NCBI GenBank assembly: GCA_964487475.1
Contig: CAZAPM010000001.1
Location: forward strand, 122,086 to 186,085
Source of the DNA: an uncultured Planctomycetales bacterium
GTDB lineage: Bacteria > Omnitrophota > Gorgyraeia > Gygaellales > Profunditerraquicolaceae
Direction: 5' to 3'
Length of the DNA stretch: 64,000 nucleotides
The notes under the pieces were generated by a model, which was not told where the DNA came from, did not search any database, and saw nothing but the letters and a program-made list of their open reading frames with translations. Both the position numbers and the translations under genes were made by a program. Shown here one piece after another: positions 2 to 63,564 of the stretch (positions are counted from its first letter, which is position 1; each line of letters starts with the position of its first letter).

Positions 2-154
2 CGGCCTTCGGCGTGTGCTTCTTCCATGCCTGCCAAGATCACGGATGAAGTTAAGACGCAGAGGCTCATGCGGCTCGCCGCCCTCTTAAAGGCGGCAGGG
101 AGAGCGTTTTCCTTGCGAGACTATACGTTGCCCCATGTCCCAACTCATCGCTGA
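2..154 (+). CDS. 3' end of an ORF entering from the window edge (...KTQRLMRLAALLKAAGRAFSLRDYTLPHVPTHR*); alternatively a 42-aa peptide from ATG 26; overlaps the next gene by 20 nt
   Basis: Frame 2 is open from nt 2 to the TGA at 152-154. An ATG lies at 26. Tight overlap with the radical-SAM gene starting at 135 suggests co-translation. Not in the ORF track because it is short or partial. Confidence 0.3.
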   Translation, partial: RPSACASSMPAKITDEVKTQRLMRLAALLKAAGRAFSLRDYTLPHVPTHR

Positions 155-1178
155 ACTGTACCTGACCGAAGCATGTACCATGCGCTGCCGCTATTGTTAT
201 CTCCCCAAACGTCCGCGCAGGATGACCTGGGAAGTCGCACGTAAGGCGGTGGATCTCGTGGCTTCCAGGAAAGTGCCTTCTACCATCATCTGTTTTTTCG
301 GGGGTGAGCCTCTTCTGGAGTGGGAGCTTCTGGTCCGGGTCGTCGCATATGCGCGGCGACAGGGGATCAGGCGTTTCAACATCTGTACGAACGGACTGGC
401 GATCACACGTCGCAGGGCGGCGCAGATGGCAGCCATGAACCTGGTCCCGATGTTCAGTATCGACGGAGCGTTCCGGCAGCATGACCGGGAACGCCTGGGC
501 GTACGGGGAAGGGCTACGCATGCTCGGGTGGTCAGGCGCATAAAGGAAGCGGTCCCTTTTTTCAAGGGGATGCCTGTCCAGGTCCAGATCACGGTCACTC
601 CCGGTACCGTCGATACGCTGCGGGAGTCGGTGGGGTTCATCCGAGGTGCATTCCCCGGATGGGATATTAATCTGGTTCCTGCGGCTGCGCAAGGGGTGCG
701 TTATAGATGGGATGCATCAGCATGTACCACGCTGCGTGCGCAATGCCGGGGATTAGGCGCGGATATCGCCGCAGAGAGGCGCGCGGGAGTATCCGGTTCG
801 GTTTCATACATGTGTTGCGCGCCGCAGCGGGACCTGGCCCATTTTAAGGCAGGTCGCCGTGCTTCTTGTTTTTGCGCCCCGGCGACCAGGCATCTTTCGG
901 TCACGGTGGAGGGAGAGGTATACCCGTGTTTCTTTTTCGCGGGACTCAAGGACAAGGCGTTTCGGATCGGTGATGTGCATGAGGGGTTGTCTGCCGGGCC
1001 TTTTGTGCGTCGGGTAGGAGAGGCTTTTTCGCGAAGGCCGGGAGTGTTTACTTGTTGGGCCGGAAATGCGGTGGTGAGGGGTATGATGGAACACAGGGCC
1101 GGTATATATGAAACGTTCGACAGGGCCTGGGCGGTCGCCGCGGCTCAGGTCAGGCGCCAGGCAACGGAGGTGCGGTGA
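135..1178 (+). CDS. radical SAM enzyme with SPASM/twitch-like C-terminal domain (anSME / peptide-maturase-like)
   Basis: N-terminal CTMRCRYC (CxxxCxxC). FFGGEPLL SAM-binding motif. FSIDG...HD..R......G hallmark of the SPASM subfamily. Cys-rich C-terminal half (YMCC...SCFC...YPC...FTC) with a GDVHEGL motif resembling the SPASM G-N/D-I/V...E motif. Confidence 0.85.
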   Translation: MSQLIAELYLTEACTMRCRYCYLPKRPRRMTWEVARKAVDLVASRKVPSTIICFFGGEPLLEWELLVRVVAYARRQGIRRFNICTNGLAITRRRAAQMAAMNLVPMFSIDGAFRQHDRERLGVRGRATHARVVRRIKEAVPFFKGMPVQVQITVTPGTVDTLRESVGFIRGAFPGWDINLVPAAAQGVRYRWDASACTTLRAQCRGLGADIAAERRAGVSGSVSYMCCAPQRDLAHFKAGRRASCFCAPATRHLSVTVEGEVYPCFFFAGLKDKAFRIGDVHEGLSAGPFVRRVGEAFSRRPGVFTCWAGNAVVRGMMEHRAGIYETFDRAWAVAAAQVRRQATEVR

Positions 1179-2053
1179 GTTCAGCGGCCGGAGTCCCTCT
1201 CCGAATCCTTGAAGTGTTCGCGCGTTCCTGGGGGGGAGCGGGAGAGTATGAGTTCTCTCTTACTCAGGGGAGCGATCAGCTTGGGGTATCTCATCTGGCT
1301 TTTCCCCCCGTACCTGAGACGACTGTGAATTTCATGGAGTTCCATCGTAAACGTTCGGCGCAGATACGGGAGTGCTGCAGGCGTGTCGCGCCTCGCGTGG
1401 TTTCCGGCAGGGTATTGCGCAAGGTATGTACCTTTGCTTTGGCGTACCGGCTCCCTCTGCAGTTCGGTTGCGAGGTAGCGCCGGGAGGGGGAATGCAGGC
1501 AAAGCTGTATCTGAGCGCAGGGCCTCGGCGTATGCACCTTTTAAAGGCCGCACAGGGTATTTTGGACTCTTTCGGGTGTCCTCCGGAGGCAGCGAAAGAA
1601 TGCGTTCCTCCAGAGTGGCATATCGATGCGTTCGGGTTCGACCTTTCCGGCGTTCCGGGGGTGCGCATATATAGCGCGGTCAGGGCTACTTCCCGTGGTC
1701 TGTCCTCTCTCGGCAAGTATCTGCGTATGTGCAGGGGAGGATTTCTCTCTCCGCTTGCCCGGAGGTTCCTCTCGCATGCGTCGCAGGTGAAGCCGAAGGA
1801 TGTGCTCCTCTTGTTCCGCATTGATGCGAAAGGGATCAGTTCAGCGAAGGCTTGTTTCAGGTTCAGGAAGCCGCTTTCTTTCTCCCTGCTTAGGCGTTGC
1901 GGCCGTGTGCCTGGCGGCCGCGGATTCTCCTGGCTGAGCAGCCGCGCAGAGGAGCTGGAGAGGCAGGGGTTCGGCATTTCTTACTTCTGCGCGGAGCGCT
2001 CTTCTTGCGGGATCTATTTCCGTCATCTCACGGCGGTGAGGAGAAGTTCATGA
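1175..2053 (+). CDS. hypothetical protein (292 aa), translationally coupled between radical-SAM genes
   Basis: GTG start at 1175 overlaps the TGA of the upstream gene (GTGA). Its stop at 2051-2053 overlaps the ATG of the next gene (ATGA). Non-repetitive, protein-like composition. Competing ORFs in the interval are Arg/Pro-rich antisense-type junk. No recognisable domain. Confidence 0.5.
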   Translation: MSSAAGVPLRILEVFARSWGGAGEYEFSLTQGSDQLGVSHLAFPPVPETTVNFMEFHRKRSAQIRECCRRVAPRVVSGRVLRKVCTFALAYRLPLQFGCEVAPGGGMQAKLYLSAGPRRMHLLKAAQGILDSFGCPPEAAKECVPPEWHIDAFGFDLSGVPGVRIYSAVRATSRGLSSLGKYLRMCRGGFLSPLARRFLSHASQVKPKDVLLLFRIDAKGISSAKACFRFRKPLSFSLLRRCGRVPGGRGFSWLSSRAEELERQGFGISYFCAERSSCGIYFRHLTAVRRSS

Positions 2054-2955
2054 AAAGAAAATCCCTGCGCAAGCTCGATTACAAGATCGGGTTCGCGTGT
2101 AACAACTATTGTATCCATTGTGTACAGGGAGGCAAGCGGGAGTCGGTACGTGCGAGGACTTTGTTTCAGATCATGCGGGATATACGCGAAAGTGCGGCGA
2201 CCTGTACGGAAGTGGTGTTTACGGGAGGGGAGCCGACCATCCATCCCCATTTCCTTGAGGCGGTGCGGGAAGCTGCGAGGGCCGGCTATTCCGTGATCCA
2301 GGTGCAGTCCAATGGAAGGATGTTCGTCTATCCCGAGTTCTGCCGCGCAGCCATGGACGCAGGAGTCAATGATTTCTGTGTTGCCGTCCTTGGTGACAGC
2401 GCACGTCTCCATGAAGCGCATACTCTTGCGAAAGGGAGTTTTTCCCAGGTAGTGCAGGGTATACGGAACCTGCGTTCTTTGGGATGCCGCGTTTCGGTCA
2501 ACTCCGTGATCACCAAGCTTAACTATCGGCGTCTGCCCCGTCTGGCGATGTTCCTTTCCGGCTTAGGGGTAGCGCAGGTGCAGTTCGCGTTTCCTCATCC
2601 CGGGGGGAGGGCGTGGATAAATTTTCCGCGCGTGGTGCCGCGGATGAGCACGGTCGTGCCTTTCGTGTGCGAGGGGCTGCGGAAGGGAGCGCAGCGTGGG
2701 GTGCGCATGATGACCGAGGCTATCCCTCCGTGCATGCTTCCTGGATTCGAGGGGTTTATCGCGGAACGGATCATGCCCGATGCGACCGTGTTCGATGGCG
2801 ACCTGGTGATCGAGCGTTATGAGGAGTATCGCAGGGATAAGGGGAAGCGAAAAGGGCCCCGGTGCGGCCAGTGCCGGTATTTTCCCTCTTGCGAGGGGAC
2901 ATGGAAAGAGTATCCCGAGAAGTTCGGCTGGAAGGAGTTCAGGCCTGTCGTATGA
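2050..2955 (+). CDS. radical SAM enzyme, tandem paralog 1 (twitch-type auxiliary Cys cluster)
   Basis: CNNYCIHC CxxxCxxC motif. FTGGEPT. VQSNGRMF. GDSARLHEAHT..KGSF. C-terminal CGQCRYFPSCEG (Cx2Cx5C). ATG 2050 is preceded by the Shine-Dalgarno GGTGAGGAG. The track's longer start at 1897 is rejected. Confidence 0.85.
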   Translation: MKRKSLRKLDYKIGFACNNYCIHCVQGGKRESVRARTLFQIMRDIRESAATCTEVVFTGGEPTIHPHFLEAVREAARAGYSVIQVQSNGRMFVYPEFCRAAMDAGVNDFCVAVLGDSARLHEAHTLAKGSFSQVVQGIRNLRSLGCRVSVNSVITKLNYRRLPRLAMFLSGLGVAQVQFAFPHPGGRAWINFPRVVPRMSTVVPFVCEGLRKGAQRGVRMMTEAIPPCMLPGFEGFIAERIMPDATVFDGDLVIERYEEYRRDKGKRKGPRCGQCRYFPSCEGTWKEYPEKFGWKEFRPVV

Positions 2956-3875
2956 TCAGGAAAACGGTGATCATCATGGGGTACCGGTGTAATTGTCATT
3001 GCGTGTTCTGCTGCAATGCGCATAAGCGTTCCCTGCCCGACCGGTCCACCGATGATATTCTGGTCGAGATGGCGCGCGCGCGCAGACGCGGGTGTACGTA
3101 CCTCGAACTTATCGGAGGGGAGGGGACCATACGGAAGGATATTTTGCAGCTGGTTTCACAGGCCCGCCGCATCGGCTTCGAAGAGGTGGTCATGGCGTCC
3201 AACGGGAGGATGTTCGCGTATCCGCATTTCGCCCGAGATCTGGTGGATGCCGGGGTGACACATCTGGTATTCTCCATTCACGGGCATACCGCGGCATTAC
3301 ACGATTCTCTTACCAGGTCCCCGGGTAGTTTTGGGCAGCTGATCGAGGGGATCGGTCATATCCGTCGTTTCAGGGACCGCTGCCCCATCGGGTCTAACAC
3401 GACTATCGTGAAGGGGAATTACCGCGCGCTCGAGGAGATCGGCAAGTTCATCTATTCGCTGGGTATCCGCAACGCCGAGTTCATCTTTGTCGATCCGACA
3501 CAGGGTGCAGCGTTCTCTTCCTTTGCCCGTATCGTGCCGAGACTTTCTGTTATGGCCCCGTACGCACGTAAATGCCTGGAATTCGGGAAGGCCAGGAGGA
3601 TCCCCCACTGGCATCTGCGATACGTGCCGTTATGCCTCTTTCCCGGTCACGAAGACCGAATCAGCGAGCTTGCGGAACGGAAGACGTTCATCACGGAGCA
3701 TGTAGCCGGGGATTTCGTCAATTTTGACGTGCAGTCATCCCGTGCTTCCGTTGGGCGTATCAAGCCTCCGAAGTGCCGTAAGTGTGCGAAATTCGCCAGA
3801 TGCGAGGGGCTTTGGAAGGAATATTACCGACATTACGGGGATAAAGAACTGCTGCCGGATATCACCCATGCCTAA
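2952..3875 (+). CDS. radical SAM enzyme, tandem paralog 2
   Basis: CNCHCVFC motif. LIGGEGT. MASNGRMF. SIHGHTAALHDSLTRSPGSF. CRKCAKFARCEG. ATG 2952 overlaps the stop of paralog 1 (ATGA). Collinear motif-by-motif similarity to paralogs 1 and 3. Confidence 0.85.
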   Translation: MIRKTVIIMGYRCNCHCVFCCNAHKRSLPDRSTDDILVEMARARRRGCTYLELIGGEGTIRKDILQLVSQARRIGFEEVVMASNGRMFAYPHFARDLVDAGVTHLVFSIHGHTAALHDSLTRSPGSFGQLIEGIGHIRRFRDRCPIGSNTTIVKGNYRALEEIGKFIYSLGIRNAEFIFVDPTQGAAFSSFARIVPRLSVMAPYARKCLEFGKARRIPHWHLRYVPLCLFPGHEDRISELAERKTFITEHVAGDFVNFDVQSSRASVGRIKPPKCRKCAKFARCEGLWKEYYRHYGDKELLPDITHA

Positions 3876-4800
3876 TATTTCAGTATATCACAAATGCGAT
3901 AACCGTTGTGTGATGTGCTCCAATCCCAGGGATTTCATACAAAGCCCGGCGAAGGATTTCTCCCTGGCGCGACTTTCACGGCGTTTAAAGAATTTTTCCC
4001 TGGGGAGAAATGTCTTTCTGGAGAATTTCAGGGACGCGTTCATTCTTTCCGGCGGTGAGCCTACCATGTCTCCGGATCTTTTTCCCGTTATCCGGAGGGT
4101 CGCCACGTTGTTCCCGCAGGCTCAGATCACCTGCTTGACCAATGGCAGGGCGTTTTCCCGTGAAGCGTACGCCAGGGAGTTCATGCGGAGGTTCCCGCTG
4201 GTGAATCTGGTGATCCCCGTGCACGGGCATACGGCTTCGCTGCACGACCGTATCACCAGGGTCAAGGGGAGCTTTACGCAGACCCTGCGGGGTCTGCAGG
4301 TGATCAGTGCCCTTATGCGTCCTACCCAGCTGCTTGAGCTCCGGGTGGTCCTGCACGGCCTCAATTACCGCTGGATGAAGGAAATTGCCCGGTTTCTGCG
4401 CGCGCAGGTCCCCAGTGCGGGACGGGTGGTTTTCATATTCGTCGAAATAGAGGGGGAGGCGGCTAAGAACTGGCGGAGGATCGGCGTGACGTATACGCAG
4501 GTCCGTCCTTTCTTGCGGGAAGCGGCTTCAGAATTGCTGCGGCTTCCTGATCCCCGGCTGTACCATTTTCCGCTCTGTCTGGTGCCGCGGGCGCTTTTCC
4601 CCCTTGTTTTTCGCACCCTGCCCGAAGCAGAGATCATGTTCCCCGTTCAGTGCCGCCTCTGTGCGCTTAAAAGCTGTTGCCTGGGGGTACACCGTGGGTA
4701 CGCCGGCGGTGTAGGGGTGGATGAGTTCCGCCCTTTCAGGCGGAAGATACGCTTCGTACGTACGGGCAATTGGTATCATCCGATCGGCAGGGTTTTGTGA
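3868..4800 (+). CDS. radical SAM enzyme, tandem paralog 3
   Basis: CDNRCVMC motif. LSGGEPT. CLTNGRAF. PVHGHTASLHDRITRVKGSF. C-terminal CRLCALKSCC. ATG 3868 overlaps the end of paralog 2 by 8 nt. Confidence 0.8.
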   Translation: MPNISVYHKCDNRCVMCSNPRDFIQSPAKDFSLARLSRRLKNFSLGRNVFLENFRDAFILSGGEPTMSPDLFPVIRRVATLFPQAQITCLTNGRAFSREAYAREFMRRFPLVNLVIPVHGHTASLHDRITRVKGSFTQTLRGLQVISALMRPTQLLELRVVLHGLNYRWMKEIARFLRAQVPSAGRVVFIFVEIEGEAAKNWRRIGVTYTQVRPFLREAASELLRLPDPRLYHFPLCLVPRALFPLVFRTLPEAEIMFPVQCRLCALKSCCLGVHRGYAGGVGVDEFRPFRRKIRFVRTGNWYHPIGRVL

Positions 4801-14528: not shown

Positions 14529-14875
14529 AGGCTGAGGAAAAGAAGGACGTGAAGGTCGCAGATCTCAAATTTGACGAAAAGGGGCTGATCCCGACGATTA
14601 TCCAGGAGTACAAGACCGGGGAAGTGCTGATGCTGGCGTATATGAACGCCGAGTCCATCAAGCGCACCATGAAGCTGGGCAAGACCTGCTTCTGGTCCCG
14701 TTCCCGCCAGGAGTACTGGGTCAAGGGGGAGACTTCGGGGCATTACCAGTTCGTCAAGTCCGTATCCTTCGACTGCGATCTCGACGCTTTGCTGATCAAG
14801 GTGCGGCAGATCGGGCCGGCGTGCCACACGAACAACGTTTCCTGTTTTTACCGGAAGTTCAAATTGGCGAAATAA
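14525..14875 (+). CDS. hisI: phosphoribosyl-AMP cyclohydrolase
   Basis: 116 aa. [22 protein letters not shown]...CHTN. Cyclohydrolase only, no HisE part. Confidence 0.9.
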
Positions 14876-14910
14876 TGAAACGTAACTTTCGGAAAGCACG
14901 GATGTATGCT

Positions 14911-14962
14911 TCGCTTAAGGTGTGGCCGCTCGAGTCTTTAGAGAATGGCCACACATGCGCTC
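14911..14962 (+). repeat. conserved ~52-nt structured motif, copy 1 (TCGCTTAAGG-stem-GCTCGAG-N5-AGAGAATGG-stem'-ATGCGCTC), intergenic hisI/trpE
   Basis: Near-identical blocks shared with 19327-19380. The variable arms GTGTGGCC / GGCCACAC are perfectly complementary. Confidence 0.55.
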
Positions 14963-14992
14963 AGCACACATCCGCGCTTTCCGATAGATAAC

Positions 14993-16483
14993 ATGTTCAA
15001 TCCATCATTTCAGGAATTTAAAAAGCTGGCGAAACAGGGGAACGTTGTTCCTGTGTATAAGGAGATCAACGCCGACCTGGATACGCCGGTCTCTGCCTTC
15101 CTTAAGATACGGGAGAAGGGCTACGCCTTCCTCCTGGAGTCCGTGGAAGGACAGGAGAAGATCGGCCGTTACTCTTTCCTGGGGACTTCGCCCTCGTTGG
15201 TCTTTACCAGCAAGGGCCGGCGTATCAGCATACGGTATCCCGCGACCGGCCGGGTGAAGGAGTTCGATACCGCGACCGACCCCCTGGACGAGGTGCGCAC
15301 CCTCATGCAGGGATACAAGGACGTGCCGGTTCCCGGGCTGCCCAGGTTCTACGGCGGGATGGTCGGGTATTTAGGGTATGATATGGTGCGTTTTTTCGAG
15401 GATATCCCGGATAAGAACCCGGATGAACTCCATCTGCCGGATTCGGTGCTGATGCTCACCGATACCATCCTGATCTTCGACCACGTCAAGCATACCATCA
15501 AGATCGTCAGCAACTGCCTGCTGGGCGGGAACGGGAAAAAGGGCAGGTCAGAGGCTTCCCTTTCAGCCGTATACCGCCAGGCCGTGCGCCGGATCGAGAC
15601 TTATGAGGCGCTCCTGGGCAAGGCCGTACCGGCTGCCAGCCGGGTGCACCATACCGGCCGCGGGGCCCGGATCACTTCGAACTTTAAAAAAGAAGAGTTT
15701 CATGGTATAGTTGATAAGTCTAAAAAGTACATCAAAGCAGGGGATATCATCCAGGTGGTGCTTTCGCAGCGTTTCGCTGCCCGCACGGATAAGGCGCCGT
15801 TCGATATGTACCGTACGCTGCGCAGCCTCAACCCCTCACCGTATATGTTCTTTCTCCAGATGGACGGGTTCCATCTGGTCGGTTCATCCCCCGAGATCCT
15901 GGTGCGATGCGAGGACAGGGTAGGGGTGGTGCGTCCTATCGCGGGTACCCGGCCGCGGGGAAGGGACGAGCAGGAGGATCTGGAGCTGGAGCGCGAGCTT
16001 CTGGCGGACCAGAAGGAAAGGGCCGAGCATCTGATGCTGGTGGACCTCGGCCGCAACGACCTGGGCCGGGTCTCCAAGCCGGGCAAGGTCAAAGTGACCG
16101 AGTTCATGACCGTGGAGCGGTATTCCCACGTGATGCATCTGGTCAGCGAGGTGCAGGGTATCCTCGAGAACAAGTACGACATCTACGATTGCCTGCGGGC
16201 GAGTTTCCCGGCCGGGACGGTTTCCGGCAGTCCCAAGATCCGGGCGATGGAGATCATAGATGAGCTGGAGAAGACCCGCCGCGGGCCGTACGCCGGAAGC
16301 GTCGGGTATTTCAGCTTCTCGCACAACATGGATATGTGCATTACCATCAGGACGATCATGCACAAAGGAAATACTGCCTACGTCCAGGCAGGAGCGGGGA
16401 TAGTGGCGGATTCGCTGCCCGCGCGTGAATATCGGGAGACCGAGCAAAAAGCCAAGGCCTTGATAGAGGCGATCAGCAAGTAA
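14993..16483 (+). CDS. trpE: anthranilate synthase component I-like chorismate-binding enzyme (TrpE/PabB family)
   Basis: N-terminal FKKLAKQGNVVPVYKEINADLDTPVSAF typical of TrpE. C-terminal chorismate-binding motifs LMLVDLGRND, PAGTVSGSPK, GPYAGSVGYF. Start taken at ATG 14993 because the track start at 14945 overlaps the conserved motif. Confidence 0.85.
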   Translation: MFNPSFQEFKKLAKQGNVVPVYKEINADLDTPVSAFLKIREKGYAFLLESVEGQEKIGRYSFLGTSPSLVFTSKGRRISIRYPATGRVKEFDTATDPLDEVRTLMQGYKDVPVPGLPRFYGGMVGYLGYDMVRFFEDIPDKNPDELHLPDSVLMLTDTILIFDHVKHTIKIVSNCLLGGNGKKGRSEASLSAVYRQAVRRIETYEALLGKAVPAASRVHHTGRGARITSNFKKEEFHGIVDKSKKYIKAGDIIQVVLSQRFAARTDKAPFDMYRTLRSLNPSPYMFFLQMDGFHLVGSSPEILVRCEDRVGVVRPIAGTRPRGRDEQEDLELERELLADQKERAEHLMLVDLGRNDLGRVSKPGKVKVTEFMTVERYSHVMHLVSEVQGILENKYDIYDCLRASFPAGTVSGSPKIRAMEIIDELEKTRRGPYAGSVGYFSFSHNMDMCITIRTIMHKGNTAYVQAGAGIVADSLPAREYRETEQKAKALIEAISK

Positions 16484-17088: not shown

Positions 17089-19290
17089 ATGGAAAAGAAA
17101 CTGATCTATAAGCTGTTGCTGGTGCTGGGCGTGGTAGGGTTGTGCGTCTACTTCGCCTTCCCTCTTAACAAACGCATCAACCTGGGGCTCGACCTTCAGG
17201 GAGGGATGCATCTGTTGTTGAAGGTGGATACTTCCAAGCTCCCGGAGAAGGATAAAGAGGATGCGTGCGACCGTGCGCTGGAGGTCATCCGCAACCGTAT
17301 CGATCAGTTCGGCGTGCGCGAGCCGTCCATCGTCAAGCACGGCACGGACGAGATCGTGGTGCAGTTGCCCGGGGTCACCGACCGCGAGCGGGCCATCGAT
17401 CTTATAGGTAAGACCGCGCTGCTGGAGTTCAAGATGGTCTCCGATGACGGGGAGAAGATCAAGCAGGCTCTTTCCGGCACCGTGCCGGAAGGATATGAGC
17501 TCAAGGAAGACCAGGAGGAGCGCACGCGCTTGCTCTTGGAGAAGGACGCGGTTTTGACCGGGGATGCCATCGCCAACGCCATGGTCAAGTTCGACGAGTC
17601 CTCCATGAACGAGCCGATGGTGACGCTGGAGTTCAATCCCGAAGGCGCCAAGAAGTTCGCGGAGATCACCGCGGCGAACGTGGGCCGGCGCCTGGCGATC
17701 GTCCTGGACGGGAAGGTGCAGACCGCCCCGAACATCAAAGAGGCGATCCCCAGCGGCCAGGCCGTGATCACCGGACGTTATGATGTTACCCGGGCGCAGG
17801 ATATCGCCCTGGTGCTGCGCGTAGGCGCGTTGCCTGCTCCCATGTACGTGGAAGAGGAGAGGACCATCGGCCCGTTGCTGGGGCAGGATTCCATCAAGAA
17901 CGGGATCAAGTCGAGCTTGATCGGCTGTGCGCTGGTATTGCTGTTCATGGCGGGGTATTATCTCATTGCCGGTTTGGTCGCCAACGTCGCGCTTTCCCTG
18001 AACATGCTCATGGTCTTAGGAGGTTTGGGGATGCTGCCGATCCTTTTCCCAGGGATCTCCGCAACGCTTACCCTGCCGGGTATCGCAGGTATGGCGTTAT
18101 CCTTAGGTATGGCTATCGACGCGAACGTGCTCATCAACGAGCGGATCCGCGAGGAACTTAAGTCAGGGAAGACCCTGCGTCAGGCCATCGGCCTGGGGTA
18201 TGACCGGGCGTTCACCGCGATCTTTGATTCCAATATTACCACACTGATTGCGGCATTCCTTCTGTTCCAGTTCGGCACCGGCCCGATCCGCGGCTTTGCC
18301 GTGACCCTGACCATCGGTCTGATCTCATCGCTTTTTACCGCGGTGGTGGTGACCAGGACCATCATGGAGACTTTGCTGCACTTCGGATGGCTCAAATCCC
18401 TGCCCATGCTTTCCCTGGTTAAGCAGACCAAGATCGATTTTATCGGGAAGCGGCGTATCTTCTATGCGCTTTCCGTCCTGGTGATCGGCGCAGGCCTTTG
18501 GTCGTTCATCTCCCGCGGAGATAAGGTCTATGGCATCGATTTCGCCGGAGGACAGGTGCAGGAGTACAAGTTCCAGCAGGCCCCTTCCGTGGATACCGTC
18601 AGGCAGCTGCTGGCGGAGATCGGGCTCAAGGATGCTTCTATCCAGCAGTTCAGGGATAATCCGCAGGTGGTGATGATCCGCACCGTTGAGGATAAGAACA
18701 AGGAGATCACCGCCAAGCTTAAAGAGGCGATGCCGGGACAGACCATCGAGACGCTGCGTATCGAACGCGTGGGCCCGGTGGCGGGAAAGTACCTCAAGGG
18801 CAAAGCGTCCGCGGCGCTGTTATGGTCTCTGATCGGCATCCTGATCTACGTGGCAATTCGCTTCAAGCATTTCAACTTCGCGGCAGCCGGTGTTATCGCG
18901 CTCTTGCATGACGTGCTGGTGGCGATGGGAGCGCTGGCTTTGACCGGCAGGCAGATCGACCTGTTGAGCGTGACGGCGTTCCTGACCATTGCCGGTTATT
19001 CCATCAACGATACCATCGTCATTTACGACAGAGTGCGCGAAAATATGCGGCTGCAGCGTAAGATGACCTTGGCCGAGCTGATAAACTTAAGCGTCAATCA
19101 GACCCTGGGGAGGACTTTGCTTACTTCCGGGGTAACGCTGCTGGTGGTCTTGTCGATCTTCCTGTACGGGGGGGAGATCCTGAGCAATTTCGCGTTTACG
19201 CTTCTGGTGGGGTTTGTCTCGGGCGTGTATTCGACCGTGTACATCGCTTCGCCCCTGGTGCTGGCCTGGCCCAGGAAACCGAAGAAGTAA
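17089..19290 (+). CDS. secDF: fused protein-export membrane protein SecDF
   Basis: 733 aa. SecD periplasmic domain and 6 TM, followed by a SecF-like second 6-TM module. yajC-secDF order. Confidence 0.93.
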   Translation: MEKKLIYKLLLVLGVVGLCVYFAFPLNKRINLGLDLQGGMHLLLKVDTSKLPEKDKEDACDRALEVIRNRIDQFGVREPSIVKHGTDEIVVQLPGVTDRERAIDLIGKTALLEFKMVSDDGEKIKQALSGTVPEGYELKEDQEERTRLLLEKDAVLTGDAIANAMVKFDESSMNEPMVTLEFNPEGAKKFAEITAANVGRRLAIVLDGKVQTAPNIKEAIPSGQAVITGRYDVTRAQDIALVLRVGALPAPMYVEEERTIGPLLGQDSIKNGIKSSLIGCALVLLFMAGYYLIAGLVANVALSLNMLMVLGGLGMLPILFPGISATLTLPGIAGMALSLGMAIDANVLINERIREELKSGKTLRQAIGLGYDRAFTAIFDSNITTLIAAFLLFQFGTGPIRGFAVTLTIGLISSLFTAVVVTRTIMETLLHFGWLKSLPMLSLVKQTKIDFIGKRRIFYALSVLVIGAGLWSFISRGDKVYGIDFAGGQVQEYKFQQAPSVDTVRQLLAEIGLKDASIQQFRDNPQVVMIRTVEDKNKEITAKLKEAMPGQTIETLRIERVGPVAGKYLKGKASAALLWSLIGILIYVAIRFKHFNFAAAGVIALLHDVLVAMGALALTGRQIDLLSVTAFLTIAGYSINDTIVIYDRVRENMRLQRKMTLAELINLSVNQTLGRTLLTSGVTLLVVLSIFLYGGEILSNFAFTLLVGFVSGVYSTVYIASPLVLAWPRKPKK

Positions 19291-19297
19291 ATAAGTC

Positions 19298-19407
19298 AGG
19301 GACGGTTCTGCTGCAAAAGGGGTTTCTCGCTTAAGGTCGGTCCGCTCGAGCAATCAGAGAATGGACCTCAATGCGCTCGAACCCCCTTTTGCAGCAGAAC
19401 CGTCCCT
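19298..19407 (+). repeat. inverted-repeat element, copy A: perfect 25-bp terminal inverted repeats (AGGGACGGTTCTGCTGCAAAAGGGG / CCCCTTTTGCAGCAGAACCGTCCCT) enclosing the ~52-nt conserved motif (copy 2, 19327-19380); followed by a T-tract
   Basis: Arms at 19298-19322 and 19383-19407 are exact reverse complements. The loop carries the second copy of the TCGCTTAAGG...ATGCGCTC motif. TTTTTT follows at 19412-19417. Lies between secDF and mfd. Confidence 0.8.
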
Positions 19408-19424
19408 AATGTTTTTTACCTGTT

Positions 19425-21335
19425 ATGTTTAAAGCGCTCAAGCTTTATAAGGGGGAACCTCTTAATGTGGCCAGGTTCGCAATGGACCTGGCGGAGTACG
19501 GCTACCGGCCGCACGAGGCCGTGGCGCAGGAGGGGGACTTCTCCCGCCGGGGCGGGATCATCGACGTTTTCCCCTTCACCTTCGAGCTGCCTATCCGCAT
19601 CGAATTAGACGGCGACGTGATCGCGTCCATCCGCAGCATCGTCCCGGAGACCGGCCAGCCGCTCTGGGACCATTCCATGGCGATCGTCCTGCCCATCCAC
19701 AAGCGCGGGGCGGCCAAACACCTTCAGTTCAAGGAAGAGGTCCCCCTGGATAATTTCGTGGACCTTTCCGCAGGGGATTATGTCGTCCATACCCAGCACG
19801 GTATCGGCCGCTTTCTGGGCCTGGAGCGCATCAGGACGGGTGAGAAGCGCAAGGACCACCTGGTCATCGAATACGACCGGCACGAAAAGCTCTATGTCCC
19901 GGTCGACCAGATGCATCTGGTGCAGAAGTACCTGGCCTTCCAGAGCCGGCGGCCGAAACTCTTCCGTTTGGGTGGCAAGGAGTGGGCCAGGGTCAAGGAA
20001 AGGGCTAAAAAGGGCATCCAGAAGCTCGCCTGGGACCTTCTGACCCTCCAGGCGATGCGCGCCACGGTGCAGGGGCACTCCTTTGAAAAGGACACTGCCT
20101 GGCAGGAGCAGTTCGAGGCCACCTTCCCGTTTACCGAGACCCCCGACCAGCTTAAAGCCACTCAGGAGGTCAAGGCGGACATGGAGTCGGATAAGCCGAT
20201 GGACCGGCTGCTCTGCGGTGACGTCGGCTACGGCAAGACCGAGGTCGCCATGCGCGCGGTATTCAAGGCCGCGGCTTCCGGAAAGCAGGTCGCGTTCCTG
20301 GTCCCGACCACCATCCTGGCTGAGCAGCACTACAAGAACTTCAGCAAGCGGCTGACGGAATTCCCCCTGCGCGTGGAGATGCTCTCCCGTTTCAGGACCC
20401 CCCGGGAGCAGCGGGAGGTCGTCAAGGCCGTGGCGCAGGGCAGGGTGGATGTGGTCATCGGCACGCACCGGCTGCTTTCGCAGGACGTTTCCTTCCGCGA
20501 CCTGGGGCTGGTGGTGATCGATGAGGAGCAGCGCTTCGGCGTGCGTTCCAAGGAGAAGCTCAAGGCGATGCGCCTTAACACCGATGTACTGACCCTGACC
20601 GCCACCCCCATACCCCGTACCTTATATATGAGCCTGATGGGCGCCAAGGACCTTTCCATGATCAATACCCCTCCCCAAAACCGGTTGCCTATAAGGACCG
20701 TTGTGGTAGAATATGACGAAGATCTGATCCGCCAGGCGATCGCGCGCGAGCTCGCCCGCAAAGGGCAGGTGTATTTTTTGCACAACCGCGTGCAGGATAT
20801 CGAAAAGATCAAGGAACGGGTTGCGCGTCTGGCTCCGGCCGGCGCCAGGATCGCGATCGGCCACGGCCAGATGGCTTCCCGGCCGCTGGAACAGGTGATG
20901 ACCGGGTTCCTGGAGGCGAAATACGATATCCTGATCTGCACCATGATCGTGGAATCGGGGATCGATATCCCCAACGTCAATACGCTGATCGTCAATAACG
21001 CCCATACCTTCGGGCTGGCCGATCTGCATCAGCTGCGGGGCAGGGTGGGAAGGCTGGACAAACCGGCCTACGCCTATTTCATGGTGCCGCGCTCCCAGGT
21101 GTTCGATTCCGACGCGAAAAAGAGGCTGGAGGCGCTGCAGGAGTATTCGCAGCTGGGCGCGGGGTTCAAGATCGCGATGCAGGACCTGGAGTTGCGGGGC
21201 GCCGGCAACCTGCTGGGCGCGCAGCAGCACGGGTACATCGCCGCGGTCGGGTTCGATCTCTACTGCCGGCTTTTGAAGGAAGCGGTCAACGCATTTGAAA
21301 AGACAGGAGTGCAGGCAACTCATGAAACTCATTAA
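19425..21335 (+). CDS. mfd: transcription-repair coupling factor Mfd, short form (lacks N-terminal D1a and part of D2, and the C-terminal D7)
   Basis: RGGIIDVFP. RID-like HEKLYVPVDQMHLVQKY. Helicase motifs GDVGYGKTEVA, DEEQRFGV, QLRGRVGR. Only 636 aa versus about 1150 for canonical Mfd. Confidence 0.85.
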   Translation: MFKALKLYKGEPLNVARFAMDLAEYGYRPHEAVAQEGDFSRRGGIIDVFPFTFELPIRIELDGDVIASIRSIVPETGQPLWDHSMAIVLPIHKRGAAKHLQFKEEVPLDNFVDLSAGDYVVHTQHGIGRFLGLERIRTGEKRKDHLVIEYDRHEKLYVPVDQMHLVQKYLAFQSRRPKLFRLGGKEWARVKERAKKGIQKLAWDLLTLQAMRATVQGHSFEKDTAWQEQFEATFPFTETPDQLKATQEVKADMESDKPMDRLLCGDVGYGKTEVAMRAVFKAAASGKQVAFLVPTTILAEQHYKNFSKRLTEFPLRVEMLSRFRTPREQREVVKAVAQGRVDVVIGTHRLLSQDVSFRDLGLVVIDEEQRFGVRSKEKLKAMRLNTDVLTLTATPIPRTLYMSLMGAKDLSMINTPPQNRLPIRTVVVEYDEDLIRQAIARELARKGQVYFLHNRVQDIEKIKERVARLAPAGARIAIGHGQMASRPLEQVMTGFLEAKYDILICTMIVESGIDIPNVNTLIVNNAHTFGLADLHQLRGRVGRLDKPAYAYFMVPRSQVFDSDAKKRLEALQEYSQLGAGFKIAMQDLELRGAGNLLGAQQHGYIAAVGFDLYCRLLKEAVNAFEKTGVQATHETH

Positions 21336-58343: not shown

Positions 58344-58844
58344 ATGAAAATAGAAGGCAACGCGATCAAGATCGGCGATAACATCAATACGGACTTTATC
58401 ATCTCCGGACGTTACAAGTTCTCCATCACGGATATGAAGGAGTTGGCGAAGCATATCATGGAGGACCTCGATCCGGAGTTCCCTAAGAAGATCACCCCCG
58501 GGAAATCCATCATGGTCGCGGGAAGCAATTTCGGGATGGGGTCGTCGAGAGAGCAGGCTCCGCTGGTGATCAAAGAGGCGGGGATCACCGCGGTCATGGC
58601 CAAGAGCTTTGCCCGGATATTCTTCCGCAACGGTTTCAACGTCGGGCTCGCCCTGATCGAGTGCGATACGGATAAGATCGGGGATAAGGACGAGCTTTCC
58701 ATCGACCTTGACCGCGGGGTGGTGCGCAATATCACCCGCAATATCGAGCTGGTCTTCAAGCCCCTGCCCGTGTTTATGCAGGAGCTCCTGAAAGAGGGCG
58801 GGGTCGTCAATTACTATAAGAAACACGGCGAACTAAAAGTTTAG
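58344..58844 (+). CDS. leuD: 3-isopropylmalate/(homo)aconitate dehydratase small subunit (LeuD family)
   Basis: GDNINTDFIISGRYKF, GSNFGMGSSREQAP, FARIFFRN. Confidence 0.9.
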   Translation: MKIEGNAIKIGDNINTDFIISGRYKFSITDMKELAKHIMEDLDPEFPKKITPGKSIMVAGSNFGMGSSREQAPLVIKEAGITAVMAKSFARIFFRNGFNVGLALIECDTDKIGDKDELSIDLDRGVVRNITRNIELVFKPLPVFMQELLKEGGVVNYYKKHGELKV

Positions 58845-58868
58845 GGACGCCCCTAAAGGGGACACCCC
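58843..58868 (+). repeat. degenerate copy (D) of the AGGGACGG inverted-repeat element family (AGGGACG + CCCCTAAAGGGGACAC)
   Basis: Shares the left terminus AGGGACG and the internal GGGGACAC hairpin with the copy at 63134-63206. Located at the leuD stop, in the leuD-leuB spacer. Confidence 0.5.
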
Positions 58869-58878
58869 TTATACGAAA

Positions 58879-59979
58879 ATGACGCATAAAATTACATTAA
58901 TTCCCGGTGACGGGATCGGTCCGGAAGTGGCTCTCGCGGCAAAACGCTGTATCGACGCGACGGGTGTCAAGATCGAGTGGGAGGAAGTGATCGCCGGCCA
59001 GGCGGCCCTGGAGAAGTTCGGGGAGCTGCTTCCTGCGGCGGTGCTGGATTCGGTCAAGCGCAACAAAGTCGCGCTCAAGGGGCCGATGACTACCCCCATC
59101 GGCACGGGATTCCGTTCTGTCAACGTGGCGCTGCGCCATGCGCTCGATCTGTATGCCTGCGTGCGGCCGGCCAAGTCTTACCCCGGGGTCAAGAGCCCGT
59201 ATAAGGATATCGACCTGGTCATTGTCCGCGAGAACAGCGAGGACCTTTACGCGGGGATTGAGTTCGAGATGGATAAGCCCGAGACCAGGGCCTTGATCGC
59301 AGAGATCGAAAAAGGCTCCAGGAAAAAGATACTTCCCGATTCGGGGATCTCGATCAAGCCTATCTCGGTGACCGCAACCCGCCGCATCGTCAAGTACGCC
59401 TTCGAATACGCCCTGGCTCACCGCCGGAAGAAAGTGACCGTGGTCACCAAGGCGAACATCATGAAGTTCACCGACGGGCTGTTCCTCAAGACTGCCCGCG
59501 AGGTGGCCAAGGAATACGAGGGAAGGGTACAGTTCGAGGAGGCGCTGGTCGATGCCATGGCCATGCAGCTGGTGCAAAAGCCGCACTCCTACGATATCCT
59601 CTGCCTGCCGAACCTTTACGGTGATATCATCTCGGACCTTTGCGCCGGTTTGATCGGCGGATTGGGAATCGCGCCCGGGTCCAATATCGGCGACGGCATG
59701 GCGGTATTCGAGGCGGTGCACGGTTCTGCTCCCAAATATGCCGGACAGAACAAGGTGAACCCTACCGCGATGATCCTTTCCGGGGTGCTGATGCTGCGCT
59801 ACCTTAACGAGGGCAAGGCTGCGGATGCGCTGGAAGGCGCGCTTACGGCCGTGCTGGCCGAGGGTAAGGATGTCACGTATGATCTTAAGCCTTCGCGCGA
59901 GGATCCGACCGCGGTAGGCACCAGCCAGATGGCGGATGCCATTATTAAAAAAATAGGGGACACTTCTAACCGTAAATGA
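58879..59979 (+). CDS. isopropylmalate/isocitrate dehydrogenase family enzyme (LeuB or NAD-IDH)
   Basis: IPGDGIGPEV. Conserved substrate-binding SVNVALR. GDIISDL. Cluster context with leuCD favours LeuB, but the adjacent mdh leaves IDH possible. Confidence 0.85.
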   Translation: MTHKITLIPGDGIGPEVALAAKRCIDATGVKIEWEEVIAGQAALEKFGELLPAAVLDSVKRNKVALKGPMTTPIGTGFRSVNVALRHALDLYACVRPAKSYPGVKSPYKDIDLVIVRENSEDLYAGIEFEMDKPETRALIAEIEKGSRKKILPDSGISIKPISVTATRRIVKYAFEYALAHRRKKVTVVTKANIMKFTDGLFLKTAREVAKEYEGRVQFEEALVDAMAMQLVQKPHSYDILCLPNLYGDIISDLCAGLIGGLGIAPGSNIGDGMAVFEAVHGSAPKYAGQNKVNPTAMILSGVLMLRYLNEGKAADALEGALTAVLAEGKDVTYDLKPSREDPTAVGTSQMADAIIKKIGDTSNRK

Positions 59980-59990
59980 GAACCGTCCCT
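59956..59990 (+). repeat. half copy (C) of the AGGGACGG inverted-repeat element (GGGGACACTTCT...GAGAACCGTCCCT), embedded in the leuB/mdh junction
   Basis: The 12-mer GGGGACACTTCT is identical to the copy at 63171-63182, and the right terminus AGAACCGTCCCT is shared with the other copies. It encodes the last 8 codons and TGA of the dehydrogenase, and the ATG plus first 5 codons (MRTVPK) of mdh. Confidence 0.7.
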
Positions 59991-63133: not shown

Positions 63134-63206
63134 AGGGACGGTTCTGGTTTACGGTTAAAAGTGTCCCCCTGGGGACACTTCTCCGAACAAAAACAGAACC
63201 GTCCCT
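63134..63206 (+). repeat. inverted-repeat element, copy B: 13-bp termini AGGGACGGTTCTG / CAGAACCGTCCCT with internal hairpin GTGTCCCC-CT-GGGGACAC; then a T-tract
   Basis: Termini identical to the first 13 nt of the arms of copy A (19298-19407). Located right after the lipoyl-carrier stop. TATTTTTAT follows. Confidence 0.75.
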
Positions 63207-63217
63207 ATTTTTATCTC

Positions 63218-63266
63218 TTGACAACCCATGGCATGGCATGTATATTCTAGATATGCGTAGATATGC
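63218..63266 (+). promoter_or_regulatory. sigma70-type promoter (TTGACA-17-TATATT) with two tandem TAGATATGC repeats just downstream of the -10
   Basis: -35 at 63218-63223. -10 at 63241-63246. Direct repeats at 63248-63256 and 63258-63266 with a 10-bp period. The spacer also carries CATGGCATGGCATG. RBS AGAGGAG at 63281-63287. Confidence 0.55.
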
Positions 63267-63290: not shown

Positions 63291-63551
63291 ATGGGTAAGA
63301 ATAGAGAGATCATGACGGCAAAGGAAGTCGCAGAGTACCTTAGCGTACACCCTCTCACGGTGCATAAATACGCGCGGGAGGGGAAGATCCCCGCATTCAA
63401 GATCGGGACGGACTGGAGATTCCACCGTAAATATATAGAGAACTGGATCAAGGATAAGTTAGACGACCGGCCGGTAGTAAAGGCAAAAGATAAAATCAAA
63501 GAGAAGTCGAAGAACGAGCAGCCTGCGGAAAATAACCCGCAGGCTTCTTGA
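63291..63551 (+). CDS. excisionase-family helix-turn-helix DNA-binding protein
   Basis: MTAKEVAEYLSVHPLTVHKYAREGKIPAFKIGTDWRFHRKYIENWI matches the excisionase/MerR-like HTH_17 pattern (...IP..K.G..WRF). Lys/Glu-rich tail. Confidence 0.7.
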   Translation: MGKNREIMTAKEVAEYLSVHPLTVHKYAREGKIPAFKIGTDWRFHRKYIENWIKDKLDDRPVVKAKDKIKEKSKNEQPAENNPQAS

Positions 63552-63564
63552 TTTTAGGGCACCT

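Follow-up and report, generated by a model that had tools for sequence, protein, structure and literature searches.

The analysed DNA is a stretch of 64 kb (hereafter the window) in which ORF and domain annotation showed housekeeping genes throughout: a radical-SAM cluster, recA-recX-alaS, his genes, trpE, rpsP-yajC-secDF-mfd-surA-pdxA, rpoBC with a ribosomal-protein region, and leuCD-icd-mdh-lpd-lplB together with a lipoyl protein. The best homologues of its SecDF and TrpE proteins are those of Candidatus Omnitrophota, the closest being only 67-79% identical. Upstream of recA (window 135-4797), four successive ORFs possessing radical-SAM domains were identified, along with two ORFs without a Pfam match. 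The exact 13-mer AGGGACGGTTCTG occurs four times in the window, with a fifth occurrence carrying one mismatch, against a chance expectation for the exact motif of approximately 0.002 (our own arithmetic); the pattern of paired 13-mers gave no match in 100 shuffles. This 13-mer is a quasi-palindrome, GGGAC-G-GTTCT, and its paired terminus reads CAGAACCGTCCCT. The first-pass annotation had counted at least four copies or fragments of a repeat here, and these were recovered as copies A and B, a half copy and a degenerate fragment (Table 1).

Table 1. Repeat elements and associated features (positions are those of the window unless a contig handle is given)
Feature	Position	Strand	Description
I2 hairpin	14883..14990	+	28-bp arms; lies between hisI stop (14873-14875) and trpE ATG (14993); core at 14911-14962
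Copy A	19298..19407	.	between secDF stop (19288-19290) and mfd-like start (19425)
Left 13-mer of copy A, AGGGACGGTTCTG	19298..19310	+	exact motif match
Right 13-mer of copy A	19395..19407	-	reads CAGAACCGTCCCT on the + strand
52-nt core in copy A, TCGCTTAAGGTCGGTCCGCTCGAGCAATCAGAGAATGGACCTCAATGCGCTC	19327..19378	+	common to 14911-14962; compensatory stem changes
T-run AATGTTTTTT 3' of copy A	19408..19417	+	
Degenerate fragment AGGGACGCCCCTAAAGGGGACACCCCT	58843..58869	+	first bases overlapped by leuD-like TAG stop
Half copy GGGGACACTTCTAACCGTAAATGAGAACCGTCCCT	59956..59990	+	one 35-nt unit; reverse complement of copy B left half, 5 differences
Copy B	63134..63206	.	13-mer / ~10 nt / AAAAGTGTCCCC / loop / GGGGACACTTCT / ~11 nt / 13-mer'
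T-run ATTTTTATC 3' of copy B	63207..63215	+	
Promoter-like TTGACA-17-TATATT for next gene (HTH_17)	63218..63246	+	directly 3' of copy B; 11/12 matches
Unrelated word-repeat hairpins, contig L117	9875-10000, 14301-14526, 8631-8756		
Unrelated word-repeat hairpins, contig L119	9952-10000, 11489-11578, 17196-17312		

Copy A had been described as possessing perfect 25-bp inverted arms, and this is exact: 19298-19322 (AGGGACGGTTCTGCTGCAAAAGGGG) is the reverse complement of 19383-19407 (CCCCTTTTGCAGCAGAACCGTCCCT), with the arms enclosing an interior of 60 nt. Copy B was confirmed to have the same outer 13 bp and a different interior, namely a central hairpin, GTGTCCCC-CT-GGGGACAC. Both copies lie directly after stop codons, as was originally claimed, copy A beginning 7 nt past that of secDF and copy B 8 nt past that of an ORF with a Biotin_lipoyl domain, and both are followed by T-runs, that of copy B reading ATTTTTAT. 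The predicted RNA fold of copy A has an energy of -73.6 kcal/mol (z = -10.5 against shuffles) and that of copy B -44.7 kcal/mol (z = -6.1); on either strand, both fold far better than shuffled sequence.

The relative L021 (Icd 74% identical) carries no family element at the position of copy B, its lipoyl gene being followed by a plain GCGCAC/GTGCGC hairpin and T6. A TTGACA-17-TATAxx promoter and the HTH_17 gene come next in both (L021 8890-9010). Copy B stands where a terminator is expected and, judging by sequence, may be functionally equivalent to the ordinary terminator of L021. Another GC-rich hairpin, AGCCTGCGG...CCGCAGGCT, is found at the end of the HTH_17 ORF (window 63510-63555). With a T-run on each strand it resembles a terminator acting in both directions, and it bears no relation to the 13-mer family.

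The half copy spans the junction of icd and mdh, where it encodes the last seven residues of Icd (GDTSNRK) and the TGA stop, then the ATG of Mdh and the residues RTVP. The Icd of L021 ends ...IIKKIK* and its Mdh begins MKISIIG..., and relative to this the half copy adds four extra N-terminal residues to the Mdh of the window. The repeat is absorbed into the coding ends of both genes and now serves as coding sequence.

The interior of copy A is itself a repeat. Copy A comprises the 13-mer termini, a further 12 bp of arms and a core of 52 nt, and the same core occurs at the hisI-trpE junction within a second hairpin, I2 (fold -56.5 kcal/mol, z = -8), whose arms are unrelated to those formed by the 13-mer. 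Four unpaired stretches (CUUAAGG, GCUCGAG, AGAGAAUGG and AUGCGCUC) are identical between the two cores. Two compensatory pairs distinguish the inner stems; further out, the closing pairs are wholly different yet still paired. Copy A is a composite, in which 13-mer arms surround a second, independent, structured module. A covariance model of the core matched 19327-19378 and 14911-14962 only, and a search of 448 kb of DNA, largely from Omnitrophota, gave no third copy. A pattern scan of reference-genome contigs gave a single chance match, inside an unrelated coding region of Acutalibacteraceae, and none was found in viral contigs.

I2 is also an insertion: the hisI-trpE junction, 117 nt long in the window, measures 0-9 nt in the relatives L113, L115, L118 and L120. 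The conserved AGAGAATGG of the core supplies an ATG in both elements (window 14945-14993 and 19361-19432). In I2 this ATG precedes trpE by 16 codons in the same reading frame, and in copy A it opens a frame of 23 codons whose TAA lies 3 nt past the ATG of mfd; these start codons may be due to chance, or may be a means of keeping translational coupling. The NCBI TrpE protein on this contig has 512 aa compared with 490-497 aa for its homologues, and therefore 14993 is likely the true trpE start. TrpE likely has 496 aa, the annotated start being a mis-annotation caused by the repeat.

The hisF-hisI-trpE-rpsP-yajC-secDF-mfd-surA operon is syntenic in seven other Omnitrophota contigs, allowing its junctions to be compared. 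The secDF-mfd interval is 134 nt in the window, nearly all of it copy A, compared with 0 nt in L112, 9 nt in L115 and L119, and 24 nt in L120; since the junction is free of the element in these four relatives, copy A is a lineage-specific insertion. In L113 the interval is 78 nt, and a hairpin of this kind, though degenerate, lies there (GAAACCGTCCCC...GGGGCGGTTTCG), followed by T6. L115, which was found via TrpE and not by the motif, carries an element of the copy B type overlapping the hisA stop codon. Differences between the window and L021 run in both directions. Where the window has the degenerate fragment, the leuD-icd interval of L021 is 2 nt; between the icd TAG and the mdh ATG, L021 has a full 45-nt element (AGGGACGGTTCTG-19 nt-CAGAACCGTCCCT) compared with the half copy of the window; and between lpd and lplB, which overlap in the window, L021 has a nested double element. 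Members of the family have thus been both gained and lost at gene junctions.

Other Omnitrophota carry unrelated hairpins at the same junctions, built of words of 7-9 nt whose left-hand repeats are direct and right-hand repeats inverted. The words vary by locus (GTATCAAAG, AATCGTAA and TAAGCTT in L119; GTCACAAGG in L117), and one such hairpin, followed by T9, occupies the secDF-mfd interval of L117. Their presence implies that hairpins are acquired recurrently at these junctions, whatever the sequence family, which is what either selection for structure or a general tendency of insertions towards gene ends could produce.

A scan of metagenomes for two 13-mers lying 25-85 nt apart returned 109 loci with paired termini, whose elements are 48-105 nt long and enclose highly diverse interiors of 22-79 nt. 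This bears out the proposal of the first-pass annotation that copies A and B belong to a family of several copies whose termini are shared and whose interiors diverge. Overall, the family consists of 35-nt units and doublets of 45-110 nt, all of them intergenic or at gene ends, with hairpin stability z-scores of -6 to -17. The most common metagenome form is 72-76 nt long (13-mer, ~10 nt, AAAAGTGTCCCC, loop, GGGGACACTTTT, ~10 nt, 13-mer'); its 10-nt segments are not mutually complementary and fall into recurring asymmetric types. Where a host could be assigned to such a locus, it was Omnitrophota (L007, L024, L101 and L105). The architecture of copy B is the standard Omnitrophota form, seen also in approximately 40 metagenome loci and in L115. 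In the Omnitrophota unit of 35 nt, the 13-mer is usually joined to a related GGGGACAC(T)TTT motif, and two inverted units make an element of 70-80 nt. The possibility that ordinary, unrelated intrinsic terminators merely resemble one another is refuted: copies A and B do have GC-rich stem bases followed by T-runs, but chance resemblance does not accommodate exact 13-mer termini in 109 loci, the lack of any match among the shuffles, or whole 35-nt units common to different loci.

Elements with clear flanking ORFs (55) mostly lie less than 20 nt from a stop codon; the flanking genes are codirectional for 39 of them, convergent for 14 and divergent for two. Asymmetric elements show no bias of orientation with respect to transcription (5 versus 8). 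At least five T residues within the 9 nt past the hairpin were counted in 29 of 105 elements, so canonical termination is not the role of all members. The terminator role first proposed for copies A and B is predicted for those two from a GC-rich stem followed by a U-run, but it does not extend to the family as a whole, in which only ~28% have a canonical T-run. In L097 (3856-4227), 13-mer elements lie between a T-box leader (RF00230, 119.9 bits) and an aminoacyl-tRNA-synthetase-like gene.

The 10-mer core GGGACGGTTC was found in 31 more exact copies outside the ascertained elements in 718 kb, compared with 1.4 expected. Some of these form additional doublets or nested pairs, and others are single or stand in tandem arrays. 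On one contig (L016), near-identical copies of 83 nt occur three times within 9 kb. In two rumen and termite-gut contigs (L093 4790-4930 and L089 2670-2810), units of ~24 nt, TTCAGAACCGTCCC with AGGTGTCCCA, form tandem arrays, and GGGAC/GTCCC words form dense arrays. Copy number per genome is apparently modest: two exact pairs were returned from each of two contigs of 647 kb and 579 kb, and of eight unbiased ~20-kb samples from Omnitrophota, four lacked any copy (none in L117-L120). DNA-uptake signals (DUS) of Neisseria have a density of approximately one per kb and are present within genes as well. Like these signals, the family has a short, conserved, asymmetric motif, found on both strands, which forms both arms of hairpins with variable interiors and spacers just after genes, and it could accordingly be asked whether the 13-mer is an uptake signal whose inverted pairs double as terminators. 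We consider this very improbable. A DUS-like role fails on density, which is 10-100 times lower: the 64-kb window has five copies and several samples of 20 kb have none. In addition, the motif is absent from coding regions save the very ends of genes, and it is not confined to one bacterial family, the phyla sharing it having no common competence system.

The first-pass annotation had left open whether the elements resemble miniature inverted-repeat transposable elements (MITEs) or REP/BIME-type repeats, and had named target-site duplications and a cognate transposase such as a RAYT as features to be looked for. Neither was found. Element flanks carry no direct repeats and often extend the palindrome instead; a T directly precedes only 39% of elements, and C (25%), G (21%) or A (14%) the others. 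No transposase, RAYT or IS was identified in the 64-kb window, and in ~840 kb of related loci, examined by tblastn with IS200 TnpA and by ORF clustering at limited sensitivity, no parent IS or RAYT was detected and transposases of any type were not enriched near the elements. No gene family was enriched near the elements either: clusters of neighbouring ORFs were generic only (GGDEF proteins, histidine kinases, response regulators, ABC ATPases), and the genes between neighbouring copies that were examined are ordinary host genes.

MITEs such as the Correia elements of Neisseria and RUP of Streptococcus pneumoniae are 50-150 bp long and non-coding, end in inverted repeats, differ in presence between related genomes and affect the transcripts of adjoining genes. 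The present elements are like them in being small (48-110 nt) and free of ORFs, with 13-bp terminal inverted repeats, a variable interior and insertion polymorphism, and could be deletion derivatives of an IS, with the 13-mer as the terminal repeat, moved by a DDE transposase with target-site duplication. Such an origin is improbable. Besides the lack of direct repeats at the flanks, no related autonomous IS was found, and the 13-mer is also met as single, nested and tandem copies. In the retrieved loci, 13-mer pairs spaced by 0.4-4 kb enclose no longer, ORF-bearing element; in viral contigs no copies of the paired termini were found, and plasmids gave no match for two representative elements. 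Classical MITE status fails for want of a target-site duplication, and no parent IS was found in the window or the ~840 kb of related loci. What stands of the earlier comparison is a repeated family placed just after stop codons, whose copies vary between relatives as inserted DNA would.

Comparison with other known elements gave no identity. In Rfam, only tRNAs were detected in the window at the gathering threshold and only spurious matches to miRNA hairpins at E-value thresholds, and the elements in 18 loci had no match. The literal motif was encountered in the searchable literature only as coincidences within primers. Integron attC sites were rejected by inspection, the termini not fitting R'' RYYYAAC ... 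R' GTTRRRY and the neighbours being conserved housekeeping operons. A sigma-54 promoter, domain V of a group II intron, a T-loop or tRNA fragment, and rRNA complementarity were likewise rejected by inspection as misfits in spacing or consensus. In Geobacter, palindromic and direct-repeat families have been described by Aklujkar et al. in many intergenic regions, some lying inside gene ends without disrupting the genes (PMC2996986, PMC2700814). The intergenic palindromic repeats and gene-end insertions described here are similar in kind, but the host is a member of the Omnitrophota, none of the motifs appears in the supplements of those two papers, and there is no sequence relationship.

The 13-mer is not restricted to Omnitrophota. 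It is identical in Omnitrophota, in Clostridia including Lachnospiraceae, and in Elusimicrobia, in loci whose host GC content ranges from 29 to 59%; exact protein look-ups assigned L049 to Eubacteriales, L094 and L039 to Lachnospiraceae, L030 to Butyrivibrio, L047 to Clostridia and L012 to an Elusimicrobia MAG. Outside Omnitrophota the architecture consists of a lineage-specific stem of 6-8 bp placed symmetrically around the 13-mer, with two such hairpins inverted, so that in the Clostridia-type copies the 13-mer lies in the loop of a variable stem. These stems include GGGACA, GAGTCA, GAACAC, GGAGAC and AATAAC. A stem of at least 6 bp was present in 77 of 246 units, compared with approximately 16 in the permutation control, and the offsets of the stems are symmetric about the centre of the 13-mer. 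Exact conservation of the 13-mer across phyla on variable stems implies a sequence-specific reader.

The elements might be non-mobile, the 13-mer being a cis site for a conserved DNA- or RNA-binding protein within gene-end hairpins that arise locally or through gene conversion and are kept by selection for binding. A 13-mer identical in three phyla, and in hosts of 29-59% GC, calls for a conserved reader; the motif is quasi-palindromic, and lineage-specific stems lie symmetrically around it; no transposase was found in the window or the ~840 kb of related loci; and the unrelated word-repeat hairpins that fill the same junctions in other Omnitrophota suggest that hairpins may be selected per se. 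We nevertheless judge a fixed binding site to be unlikely, though the most serious of the competing explanations, as the genes adjoining the elements have no common function, the near-identical copies in L016, the tandem arrays and the nested doublets look like copying and not independent origin, and the half copies and decayed fragments look like repeats in decay.

The family is best read as one of REP/REPIN-type (BIME-like) repeats, small and non-coding and able to form hairpins, a reading to which we assign a probability of roughly 0.58. REP units are short, imperfect palindromes, usually arranged as inverted doublets that fold as two small hairpins or one long one; singletons resemble decayed doublets, and REPs lie downstream of genes, where the neighbouring ORFs are codirectional or convergent, and form mosaics with other motifs (PMC3733652). 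The same features are found here: extragenic palindromic repeats with units of ~35 nt, inverted doublets (copy B and the ~40 loci of its type), singleton remnants, downstream placement at codirectional or convergent genes, and mosaics. Two superfamilies of REPs are defined by an unpaired GTAG/CGTC tag at the end of the stem (PMC3733652), and several differences follow from the comparison. No conserved tag lies outside the 13-mer, and the CGTC within CAGAACCGTCCCT is paired. The conserved part here is the 13-mer, which may sit in a loop, whereas REPs conserve the stem. The same 13-mer is present in three phyla, whereas any one REP is typically limited to a species or genus, and this identity is not what REP-RAYT co-evolution predicts. 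Copy number is apparently in the tens and not the hundreds, and neither the window nor the ~840 kb of loci yielded a RAYT. Membership of the RAYT-associated REP superfamilies is not established, since the defining tag is absent and no RAYT was found; the family is filed as a new member of the broad group of small palindromic intergenic repeats. The structured module within copy A, the half copy in the ends of icd and mdh, and the occurrence of the 13-mer across phyla are points that go beyond the first-pass annotation.

As REP/REPIN-like repeats, the elements would be non-autonomous, and the best reading of their role is as terminators or mRNA-end structures. The basic block is the 13-mer, carried in Omnitrophota mostly in 35-nt units that pair in inverted orientation, and there are also single units such as the half copy and decayed pieces such as the degenerate fragment. 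New copies would be inserted or copied, in either orientation, into the few bases past stop codons by a candidate factor that recognises the 13-mer and acts in trans, probably on the single-stranded hairpin form. Each element would then be co-transcribed with its upstream gene; where a U-run comes next, as for copy B at the end of an operon and copy A between secDF and mfd, the hairpin may terminate transcription, and elsewhere it may serve as an mRNA 3'-end or processing structure.

A more far-reaching and speculative proposal, which we hold to be unlikely, is that distantly related anaerobes (Omnitrophota, Elusimicrobia and Clostridia) share a hitherto undescribed system, spreading horizontally, which recognises the 13-mer GGGAC-G-GTTCT and places hairpins after genes. 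Its enzyme might be of the HUH type, specific for single strands, and might read the loop, which is conserved, on stems that vary. In addition, the 52-nt core found in copy A and I2 would be a separate, new, structured RNA or single-stranded DNA module riding inside such hairpins, its single-stranded stretches conserved, its stems covarying and its closing stem free. Should whole-genome surveys bear out that the 13-mer is identical across phyla, a trans-acting reader would be indicated, which could be found by co-occurrence.

For the uncultured Omnitrophota, on whose non-coding DNA no description was found in the literature searched, the family offers a first handle on operon punctuation and shows hairpins turning over at fixed operon junctions. 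For the study of repeats, it provides a case of sequence captured into the ends of icd and mdh, and it flags the mis-annotation of a gene start in trpE.
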